This document shows positions 6,001-9,000 of a stretch of 42,324 nucleotides of DNA, piece by piece (position 1 is the stretch's first letter; each line of letters starts with the position of its first letter). Source of the stretch: Escherichia coli (GTDB taxonomy: Bacteria > Pseudomonadota > Gammaproteobacteria > Enterobacterales > Enterobacteriaceae); NCBI RefSeq assembly GCF_003334785.1, contig NZ_QOWV01000024.1. One strand, given 5' to 3'. The position numbers are program-made.

Positions 6001-9000
6001 CTGCAAGCCAGAGGTGACGACCCACTGGTCGCCGATGGCTTTGCTGGCTTCAATTTCGCGTAGCTGCACGACATCGTCTTTATCCAGAATGAGCGCCGTT
6101 GCTTTACCCTGGGCGTTGTGGGTGACGCCTTCCTGCGGCACCAGTAATACATTCTGGCGGCTACCTTCATCCACTAATGCCGTGACGTACATGCCAGGCA
6201 GCAAGTCACCATTTGGGTTGGGGAAAATCGCCCGTAACGTCACGGAGCCCGTGGTTTCATCCACTGTCGGGTCGGAGAATTTCAGCGTGCCGGTCTGGCT
6301 GTAGCGTTTACCATTTTCCAGATTGAGCTGTACTGGCGTACTGCCCTGAACCTGTTTGATTTGCCCACTGGCGACCTCTTCTTTCATGCGTAAGAAATCT
6401 TGCACCGACTGCGTGAGATCGACATAAATCGGGTCCAGACGTTGTACGGTAACCAGCGAATCTGCCTGATTAGCGGTAACGAGTGCGCCGACGGTCACCG
6501 ACGATTTCCCGCTGACGCCCGTAATCGGCGAGGTGACATTCGCGTATTGCAGATTGATCGTCGCCTGTTCAACAGCCGCTTTGGCGACGGTGACATTGGC
6601 TTCTGCTTCATTCAACTGGGTGCGCGCGGTGTCGTAATCCTGACGGCTAACGTAGTTGGTCTTCAGCAACGATGCCTGGCGGTTAAAGGTGATGCGGGCA
6701 TTGCTGGCGGTAGAGAGCGCTTTCGCCAGCGAGCCTTTGGCGGAGTTTAGCTCGGCCTGTAAAGGTGCAGGATCAATCTGATACAGCGAATCGCCCTGGT
6801 TCACTTTATCGCCTTCGATAAAGTTGCGTTTAATGATAATACCGCCCACCTGGGGACGTATCTCGGCAACTTCATAAGGAACGGTTCTACCGGGCAATTC
6901 GCTCAACACATTGACCGAACCGGGGGAGAGTGTGACGACACCGACCTCAGGCGTCATGGCGGCGGCGTTTTCCGCCGATTTGTCATCGCAGGCGGTGAGC
7001 ATCGCGCCGCAGAATAACAACGGTATTAACAGCTTTCTTCTTCTGTTCATTTTAGTCCCTGAAAATTCTTGAGAAATAACGGTTCTTTAAATTGCGCGCG
7101 AGGAGAGATATGAGGGATTTACAGACCAGCGGCATAGTGGGGTTGTCAGCCAGTAAGGTGGGATACAGGCACAGTGATCGACATGGTGAGGTCAACGACA
7201 AAAAAAATGTTGCCGTTCTGCCAACAGTTCCTGCCAGCATTCGGGCAACGAAGGGTTCTACTGGTGGATACACATACCAGGGGAATAAAGTCGTTTTAGC
7301 CTCTCCTTTAGTAATCACCGGGGGTAATGAAATCAGCATCTGCATCCCTCGTCATGCCAGCCATCAATTTCAGTTGCTTATGTCCTGACTAAAAATAAGA
7401 TGTGATACCCAGGGTGACGATGTCGCTCATACGTCTTAGTTTCAGCTTGTACATAATGTTGAATTTCTGAATCTTTAATGTTTGTTGCGAAATATTGAGC
7501 GTCGACGTGATATTGCTTTCATTTTTATTTTTCAGAATCAGTTGCATAATTTTGAACTGATTATGTGAAAAACATAATTGTGAATTCTTATGGGGCAAGT
7601 GTTTACCATAAGTAATCTCAAGAAGATTTTTGATACTTTCTTTGCGGCTAACAAAATAAATAGGCGCTTTAGCTTTTAGTTTACTGATGTGATAAGGTGC
7701 CAAAACAATAATTCTCTCGGCATCTAATTTCTCCAGAAATTTAATCGCTTCTTCATCAAGGATATGATTGTGATAGGTATCAATGATAACCTTGAAGGGT
7801 TTATTGCCTACTTTTTTGATCTCTGACAGGGAATTGATTTTTATCATTTCGTGATTATCTTTCAACTGCCAAAAGCCCTGTAAAAGAAAAGAATCTTTCG
7901 TCATGAGAAAAATCATAACTTGCTCCTTAGCCGTTATCGTTTCGAATATGTCATCCTTTTCATTATTTACATCCTTGTCCGAATCGTTGTTCAATATAGT
8001 AAACGCCTATAAGAACTTTACCCTTCGTGAACTAATACGTCTATTAACACTAATCAATACTTCAGATTTATCCATCACGCACTCCATATATTGATCCTAA
8101 GTAAGATTCCTGGTTGTTATCAGCTTGTAAATAGCAAACAAAAAGTTAACGTTTGCGGATTACTGCCCAAGAATAAGTTATCAATAACCAGTTTGTGATC
8201 TCTGAAGAATATTACTAAAGTTAAAATGTAATCCGATTTAAATATCGAGTCTCCTTGTTTCGACTTAAGCTGGCAATTGGATTGCCAGCTTTCTTTTAAC
8301 GCATTGAAATTACCTGAGTAAATAACGCATTCATGTCTTCAGGTTTTTATATAGCGTCTGGAGACACGGATATTTATGCAATGTAATCAACGCCAGTTGC
8401 AAAAAAATGAACCCGGATTACTTATTTAACCGCCCATAGCATCAACGCTTACGGAACTCTTTGTTCACTTTCCCACAGCACTTTTAAAACATTAAACCTG
8501 ACTACGGAAAATATCAGCCATGATAATGTTTGAAATGGCTAATTTGCCATAGAGTGAAAAAAATTAGATGAAATTCAGTAGGTTGAAATAATCACTAGCA
8601 GGTAATTATTTCAATGATAGTGCGCAATTGATCTACAACACTGCGTAGCGGAGAGAGTATTAATCGGATCATAGTCACATCAAGTGACTATGATCCGGGT
8701 GACAACCGGGGTAATTATTGCTGCTTAACGAACAAACTGGCGAAGCTGAACAGGCTGGCGGCGCTAAATATCAGTTCAATTCCCACCAGTGTGGAAACCA
8801 GCGTTACAGACACCATCGGCGTTGCACCAAGGAATATCCAGGCAATGACGATATCCAGCACACCAATAACGAGCTGTAGCCAGCTGCCTTTCATTGAACG
8901 CTGACGATACCAACTCATCAGGCGAATAACCCCTGCAACACAGAACAAACCGGCAATAAATGCCGCAATGGCAAAAATGCCCAGCTCCGGTGCGCGGATG

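Follow-up and report, generated by a model that had tools for sequence, protein, structure and literature searches.

The perfect 14-bp inverted repeat that lies between hdeD and gadE of Escherichia coli is, at a probability which we put at about 90%, the 3'-terminal stem-loop of the hdeD mRNA, and it is best read as an ordinary transcript-end structure and not as the binding site of a regulator. The window (the whole stretch of 42,324 nucleotides that was analysed) is the acid fitness island of E. coli K-12, and is 100% identical to K-12 over the stretch which carries the dyad. Positions were converted as window = 3666282 minus the MG1655 coordinate (NC_000913.3), a relation which was checked on the arrS 3' end and on a 3' end internal to hdeD. 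The hdeD-gadE intergenic region (7917-8714) measures 798 bp with 36% G+C, and within it, in the hdeD sense, the stop codon is followed by 17 nt (8698-8714), the hairpin and then AUUAAUACUCUCUCC. With respect to gadE, the dyad is located at -749 to -781 from the ATG, and the nearest mapped start site, T3 (-566, window 8482), follows 183-215 bp further downstream. An earlier reading made from the DNA alone (hereafter the sequence-only reading) had placed the dyad at the distal edge of the 798-bp region between hdeD and gadE; this context was upheld, except that the spacing is 17 nt after the stop codon and not 18. Since both genes lie on the minus strand of the window, the loop is UUGAU in the hdeD sense where that reading gave atcaa. 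The features are presented in Table 1.

Table 1. Position of the hdeD stem-loop, the associated transcript end and the adjacent features in the window.
Feature	Position	Strand	Basis
hdeD CDS (190 aa); its transcript ends in the hairpin	8715-9287	-	CDS call, K-12 identity
hdeD 3' UTR, 54 nt (17-nt spacer, 33-nt hairpin and 4-nt tail)	8661-8714	-	gene coordinates, mapped 3' end
3'-terminal stem-loop of hdeD mRNA, 14-bp perfect stem, 5-nt loop	8665-8697	-	repeat arms, folding, simulations, covariation
Steady-state hdeD transcript 3' end, MG1655 3657621 (+ there), 4 nt after the stem base (CCG-AUUA)	8661	-	Term-seq, TRS
C-rich, G-poor tract after the hairpin, beginning AUUAAUACUCUCUCC, 26 C and 15 G in 120 nt; candidate Rho loading/termination zone	8545-8664	-	composition, published Rho peak
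gadE CDS	7389-7916	-	CDS call, K-12 identity

A repeat search placed the two arms at 8665-8678 (CGGATCATAGTCAC) and 8684-8697 (GTGACTATGATCCG), with 14 of 14 positions complementary and 5 nt between them. This dyad heads all perfect short-loop inverted repeats of the window, the runners-up having 12 bp, and in first-order Markov simulations of the window (n = 200) the longest arm reached 14 in none and 13 in three. The repeat search and the simulations thus confirmed the view that a perfect 14-bp palindrome with a 5-nt spacer is unusually long here. When the 43-nt segment was folded as RNA, the hdeD-sense strand gave -25.0 kcal/mol (z = -8.4, 0/200 shuffles as stable) and the opposite strand -24.5 kcal/mol (z = -6.5, again with no shuffle as stable). 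The stem comprises 6 G-C and 8 A-U pairs (43% G+C). While 14 bp and a 5-nt loop fit the stem of an intrinsic terminator, which is G+C-rich, about 5-14 bp long and closed by a short loop, only 6 of the 14 pairs are G-C. A small CCGG...CCGG hairpin just upstream and a plus-strand terminator-like match at 8694-8710 were also seen; they are not conserved in other E. coli alleles and were set aside.

The end of the hdeD transcript at this position has already been mapped in two published datasets. In the Term-seq data of Adams et al. 2021 (eLife, PMC7815308; Supplementary file 1, sheet M63 0.4) a 3' end with 1150 reads is listed at MG1655 3657621 (+), and its context in the M63-glucose sheet reads CCCCGGTTGTCACCCGGATCATAGTCACTTGATGTGACTATGATCCGATTA up to the 3' end and ATACTCTCTC after it; this column holds 50 nt upstream, the 3' end and 10 nt downstream, as was checked on the sgrS and arrS terminators of the same table. 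The mapped end lies 4 nt beyond the last base of the stem and 54 nt beyond the stop codon. That study (PMC7815308) calls it 'orphan' only because ends more than 50 nt beyond the stop codon are excluded from its 'primary' class. The second map, TRS on RNAtag-seq data (PMC10687069, Supplementary Data 2), lists a peak at 3657617-3657627 with a dominant position of 3657621, assigned as 'Primary hdeD', significant in three libraries and with a signal of 0.9355. As the TRS signal R is 1 minus the local read-through over the next 67 nt, about 6% of the fragment ends there represent read-through for hdeD, and the values for the neighbouring bona fide terminators of arrS and hdeA are 0.987 and 0.961 (PMC10687069). 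Steady-state RNA beyond the hdeD hairpin is accordingly low. The opposite strand has no listed 3' end up to about 100 nt from the hdeD end in any of three growth conditions (PMC7815308). The mapping of hdeD 3' ends, which the sequence-only reading had proposed as a check, was therefore available in print, and the two independent maps agree on 3657621; its suggestion that hdeD transcription ends at the dyad is supported in part, by a Term-seq and TRS terminus 4 nt after the stem. Full-text literature searches combining hdeD with terminator, Term-seq or RNase III found no study of the hdeD hairpin, and the hdeD sRNA paper (PMC5861431) deals only with the 5' UTR.

To follow the hairpin across genomes, complete E. 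coli genomes were searched with the dyad and one genome per species was scanned among its relatives, which yielded seven further usable loci. The dyad is single-copy: of 5,426 complete E. coli genomes, 5,411-5,413 have one locus each, and the 'two places' per genome returned by the search are the palindrome matching itself on both strands. The hairpin occurs in the alleles sampled from 5,413 E. coli genomes, and all other Escherichia species that were found carry it as well. About 1,300 E. coli genomes, including ABU 83972, carry a diverged allele, and the divergence is confined to window positions 8559-8758 (84-86% identity versus 96-100% in the flanking bins). In these alleles the flanks are altered and the loop UUGAU becomes AUUAA or UUUAU, while the stem has only a compensated replacement of its outer C-G pair by U-A, plus a C-to-U substitution in a single strain that leaves a G.U pair. 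In E. albertii, E. whittamii, Escherichia sp. E1V33 and strain E69, the stem reads GCCTCAT...ATGAGGC versus GGATCAT...ATGATCC in E. coli, so that both partners of two adjacent pairs are exchanged. In these four the hairpin is 34-36 nt from the stop codon, compared with 17 nt in E. coli, and the flanks are hard to align. Each arm of the dyad in E. coli holds one GATC, and a role for Dam or SeqA was considered and rejected, as GATC is absent from the albertii, whittamii and E69 stems and E7-1N7 loses one of the two.

Across 12 distinct Escherichia sequences, 95.8% of the stem cells are standard pairs. Pairs 1, 3 and 4 are altered on both sides (C-G/U-A, G-C to C-G and A-U to C-G, respectively; 11 cells), and none of the five loop positions is constant. 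Neither the observed pairing nor the covariation score was reached in any of 500 column shuffles, and when the partner was slid by 1-3 columns as a control, pairing fell to 23-44%. The compensatory changes amount to only about 3-4 independent events, and the support which they give to a paired structure is solid but not overwhelming. With respect to the strand under selection, E7-1N7 and E69 favour an hdeD-sense RNA by their G.U versus A.C states, whereas the A.C at pair 10 of albertii and whittamii favours the opposite strand; with about three events each way these counts do not discriminate, and the assignment of the hairpin to the hdeD strand comes from the mapped 3' ends. Beyond Escherichia, hdeD and a gadE homologue of Kluyvera cryocrescens are convergent, and a hairpin of unrelated sequence, ACGATCTACCC-GAG-GGGTAGATCGT, occupies the 56-nt gap between them, so that a hairpin at the end of hdeD is kept despite a different sequence and a different orientation of the neighbouring gene. 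The Kluyvera element resembles the bidirectional hairpins found between convergent genes, and shares with the Escherichia one a palindrome at the hdeD end which can be folded from either strand. In Escherichia, however, hdeD and gadE are in tandem, and at this site the published maps have a 3' end for the hdeD strand only.

These comparisons bear directly on the suggestion of the sequence-only reading that the dyad could bind a dimeric regulator. An operator in the DNA, lying at the outer limit of the gadE control region and bound by a dimeric transcription factor, would be in keeping with a perfect dyad which at 14 bp exceeds most operators, with an inner 10 bp (TCATAGTCAC/GTGACTATGA) almost invariant across Escherichia, and with the inclusion of the dyad in the 'P3' promoter fragment bound by ArcA-P in gel shifts (PMC3708157). 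The changes at pairs 1, 3 and 4, on the other hand, keep the pairing and not the base identity of the half-sites, and the Kluyvera hairpin at the same position is unrelated in sequence. The nearest mapped gadE start site is 183-215 bp away and an RNA 3' end maps directly at the foot of the dyad. No site at the dyad is described in the gadE-region literature examined. Regulator occupancy, also named as a check by the sequence-only reading, was read for GadE: consecutive GadE ChIP-exo peaks fall at the hdeD promoter and then at about -55 of gadE T1, with none between and hence no GadE peak at the dyad. With compensating pair changes, an unrelated Kluyvera hairpin and no GadE peak, the operator idea is not supported, and we regard it as very unlikely. 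Still less credit, to the point of being negligible, is given to a copy of a dispersed repeat (REP/BIME-like, or a MITE end) or a functionless chance palindrome. Its palindromic form would suit either of these, but the element has one locus per genome, an Rfam search at a permissive threshold over 7000-10500 gave no match at the dyad, the simulations did not reach 14 bp, and the stem is conserved with compensation.

How the 3' end is made depends on the sequence after the stem. The first 8 nt of the tail, AUUAAUAC, include 3 U, the longest U run being 2, and the first 7 (AUUAAUA) are A or U only, with no G or C. A simple terminator scan, which requires at least 5 U of 8, did not call the hdeD hairpin but called the arrS terminator 370 bp away. 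A hand-written d'Aubenton-Carafa-style score was uncalibrated and negative for the genuine arrS terminator too; it was discarded and the U counts were kept. No U-tract follows the stem in E. coli or in any ortholog, as judged from the tails of the 12 distinct sequences. In E. albertii the sequence after the hairpin is CGUCAUACUCCC and in E69 it is GCUAACACCUAC, both without a U-tract; the tails start CGUCAUAC in E. albertii, UAUAACAC in E. whittamii and GCUAACAC in E69.

The main rival to termination by Rho with subsequent trimming, which is the mechanism we favour, is that the hairpin acts as a weak, non-canonical intrinsic terminator, in which the 14-bp stem and the seven A/U nucleotides would release the RNA and slight trimming would produce the +4 end. 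The strong stem (-25 kcal/mol), the AUUAAUA tail without G or C, and a sharp 3' end with low read-through (R = 0.94, close to the bona fide terminators in the same table) speak for it, as does the equivalent hairpin of Kluyvera, which lies between convergent genes and has a terminator-like UUUGUAAUCU tail on the gadE-sense strand. Against it are the short U run, the U content of the first 8 nt and the negative scan, as well as the tails of E. albertii, E. whittamii and E69, by which the conserved feature is not a U-tract. In addition, the hdeD end lies at +4 versus +6 (arrS) and +8 (sgrS) for nearby U-tract terminators in the same dataset, and a conserved C-rich tract with a bicyclomycin-sensitive region downstream would be unnecessary. 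When set beside canonical intrinsic terminators such as that of arrS (8267-8291 plus UCUUUU), the hdeD element is alike in its terminal stem-loop, sharp end and low read-through, but differs in having no U-tract in any ortholog, a stem of 43% G+C and an end at +4 which lies outside a U run. We consider this rival possible but doubtful.

The 120 nt after the hairpin are C-rich and G-poor. In K-12 alone the skew is modest (26 C versus 15 G), and falls in the top 4.2% of 120-nt windows on the same strand of the window. All 11 Escherichia sequences had a ratio of C to G of 1.5-3.2 over these 120 nt, which dropped to 0.7-0.84 over the 240 nt that follow. A bicyclomycin-sensitive region of Rho termination has been reported here, with the most significant position at 3657733 (+) (PMC7815308, Supplementary file 2); this peak corresponds to window position 8549, 112 nt beyond the hdeD 3' end and 67 nt upstream of gadE T3. 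Reads of 101 upstream and 28 downstream were obtained without bicyclomycin, and of 251 and 475 with it, giving a Rho score of 6.8 (p = 2e-20; PMC7815308). The call was computed over stretches of 800 nt from cells grown in LB to OD 0.5, a condition of weak hdeD expression. The rise in downstream reads with bicyclomycin could come partly from gadE's own promoters or from a loss of H-NS/Rho silencing.

Precise 3' ends of this kind are known from Rho-dependent transcripts. Dar & Sorek 2018 (PMC6061677) described Rho-dependent transcripts whose precise 3' ends lie just after stable stem-loops without a U-rich tail, with an enrichment of C over G downstream and Rho sensitivity beyond the 3' end, and attributed these ends to exonucleolytic trimming back to a hairpin which protects from PNPase and RNase II. 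The hdeD element shares with this class a stable stem-loop just upstream of a precise 3' end, the lack of a U-rich tail and the downstream enrichment of C over G; the bicyclomycin-sensitive region downstream may be a further likeness, to be read with the 800-nt resolution and possible gadE promoter effects in mind. It differs in that its stem is a perfect 14 bp, and in that we infer Rho and exonuclease dependence for hdeD. The combination of a stable hairpin, a precise end, no U-tract, C over G and a Rho region leads us to favour Rho termination downstream followed by trimming back to the protective hairpin, and we consider this mechanism probable, if by no means certain. As there is no U-tract after the stem, RNA polymerase would most likely transcribe through the hairpin. 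Rho would then load on the C-rich, G-poor RNA just downstream and would end transcription within about 100-150 nt, ahead of the distal gadE promoter P3. PNPase and RNase II, as 3'-to-5' exonucleases, would degrade the unstructured tail until they meet the base of the 14-bp stem; this would leave the precise 3' end 4 nt after the stem and shield the hdeD message from further decay. The steps proposed for this place, Rho acting on hdeD read-through transcripts and exonucleases doing the trimming, are what we infer from these features. Some hairpin-driven termination through a weak RNA:DNA hybrid is also possible at the seven A/U-only nucleotides after the stem.

The proposal of the sequence-only reading that the dyad terminates hdeD transcription thus stands in so far as the transcript ends here. 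With no U-tract and a Rho-dependent region about 112 nt downstream, the hairpin more likely fixes or protects the 3' end than halts RNA polymerase itself. The same reading had also considered a processing site. RNase III acts elsewhere in the gad system, and its typical substrates have roughly two helical turns, with a duplex of about 20 bp or more and cleavage inside the stem. A perfect duplex would accord with an endonucleolytic site (for RNase III, for example) which parts hdeD from a longer hdeD-gadE transcript, but a 14-bp stem is short for such a substrate, the mapped 3' end at +4 lies outside the stem, and a full-text search linking RNase III, cleavage and hdeD returned only papers which by their titles are reviews or unrelated studies. 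Endonucleolytic cleavage is accordingly given hardly any weight, slightly less even than the operator, and the hairpin would count as a processing site only in so far as it blocks trimming by 3' exonucleases.

Part of this picture is already known, as the 3' end is in two public genome-wide tables and the element class is well described. The present analysis adds the connection of that 3' end to the palindrome, the covariation across species, and the probable mechanism of Rho termination plus trimming. With respect to gene control, the hairpin and the Rho site could form a tunable gate, in which relief of Rho termination would allow read-through from hdeD across the 798 bp into gadE-mdtEF. This idea arises because GadE activates the hdeD promoter and hdeD is directly upstream of gadE on the same strand, and possible triggers are stress, anti-termination, and effects that translation or sRNAs may exert on the short 3' UTR. 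The bicyclomycin data (downstream 28 to 475, upstream 101 to 251) are compatible with such a gate, and the counts do not imply an origin at the hdeD promoter. We consider the gate unlikely; if true, it would constitute a transcriptional positive-feedback loop which bypasses the gadE promoters.

Beyond annotation the finding has little importance: a 3' end which one published table carries only as 'orphan' can now be tied to a structure and to a probable mechanism, and the hdeD 3' UTR is set at 54 nt. For the gad system, it means that about 50 bp at the far end of the '798-bp gadE regulatory region' are part of the hdeD transcript rather than of the gadE control sequence, in agreement with the '750 bp' given in the title of Sayed & Foster 2009. 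Promoter fusions or deletions which take out 8661-8714 would therefore deprive the hdeD mRNA of its 3' stabiliser, and may also take away an insulator that separates hdeD from gadE.

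Term-seq places a 3' end within hdeD itself, at window position 9156 on the minus strand (MG1655 3657126), 131 nt into the open reading frame. With 1,502 reads in the M63 sheet, this internal end was slightly stronger than the terminal end of hdeD (PMC7815308). Further hairpins and an sRNA match elsewhere in the window are presented in the table.

Hairpins and sRNA match in the window
Feature	Window position	Strand	Description
ArrS sRNA terminator	8267-8297	+	11-bp palindrome AAGCTGGCAATTGGATTGCCAGCTT plus UCUUUU
ES205 sRNA match	7200-7271	-	Rfam, 105 bits, E 1e-18; between gadE and mdtE
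Hairpin, first copy	16709-16735		11 bp, identical to second copy; A and T runs on flanks (AAAAAACCGACTTTGCGTCGGTTTTTT)
Hairpin, second copy	16940-16966		11 bp, identical to first copy; A and T runs on flanks (AAAAAACCGACTTTGCGTCGGTTTTTT)

The ArrS 3' end was mapped by Term-seq to MG1655 3657985, window position 8297, with up to 983,000 reads (PMC7815308). Opposite this terminator, a gadE-sense 3' end at 3658019/3658020 (window about 8263, minus strand) is present in both published maps (PMC7815308, PMC10687069), and is labelled "5' UTR gadE" with a TRS signal of 0.97 in the latter. As with the hdeD end, it lies approximately 4 nt beyond a stem, here that of arrS, and is not accompanied by a U-tract. 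The arrS hairpin may cause premature ending or trimming of gadE transcripts from the distal T3 start site.

With respect to the ES205 match, its coincidence with published 3' ends at MG1655 3659080/3659081, labelled gadE,gadF, identifies it as GadF, an sRNA that originates from the 3' UTR of gadE. The two identical hairpins are spaced 231 nt apart, and because their sequence occurs as the reverse complement in the agrB Term-seq context, they look like the bidirectional terminators belonging to AgrA and AgrB, a duplicated pair of sRNA genes.

Comparison with other genomes revealed a convergent arrangement of hdeD and a gadE homologue in Kluyvera cryocrescens NBRC 102467 (L013 2501-3654), with a gap of only 56 nt, in contrast to the tandem hdeD-gadE layout of the Escherichia acid island. 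Kluyvera hdeD was 57% identical, and an hdeA-like gene lies upstream in divergent orientation. An hdeD region also occurs on an 8.6-kb contig of an assembly labelled Flavobacterium paronense CECT 8460 (NZ_JAUFQN010000010.1), where it contains single-base deletions and shares 98% identity with E. coli K-12; the long-read assembly was almost certainly contaminated with E. coli DNA.

Immediately 3' of the hdeD hairpin, a short motif, A-Y-A-C-U-C-Y, was found at window positions 8649-8664 (minus strand) and at the orthologous positions in all Escherichia sequences, its Kluyvera counterpart being ACUCC. The tail of the B2-type E. coli allele, AGTTAATAC, shows a loose similarity to the old ArcA box, (A/T)GTTAATTA(A/T) (quoted in PMC3708157). 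The motif may simply be the beginning of the C-rich Rho tract.

Within E. coli, sequence divergence is locally concentrated at window positions 8559-8758, a stretch that includes the putative Rho tract as well as the 3' UTR of hdeD. Diverged alleles (E138 and ABU 83972-type; about 1,300 of 5,411 genomes) were 84-86% identical to K-12 here, with flanking 100-nt bins at 93-100% each, and the GadE protein was identical. Apart from the stem, this portion of the "798-bp regulatory region" thus seems to be under weak constraint.
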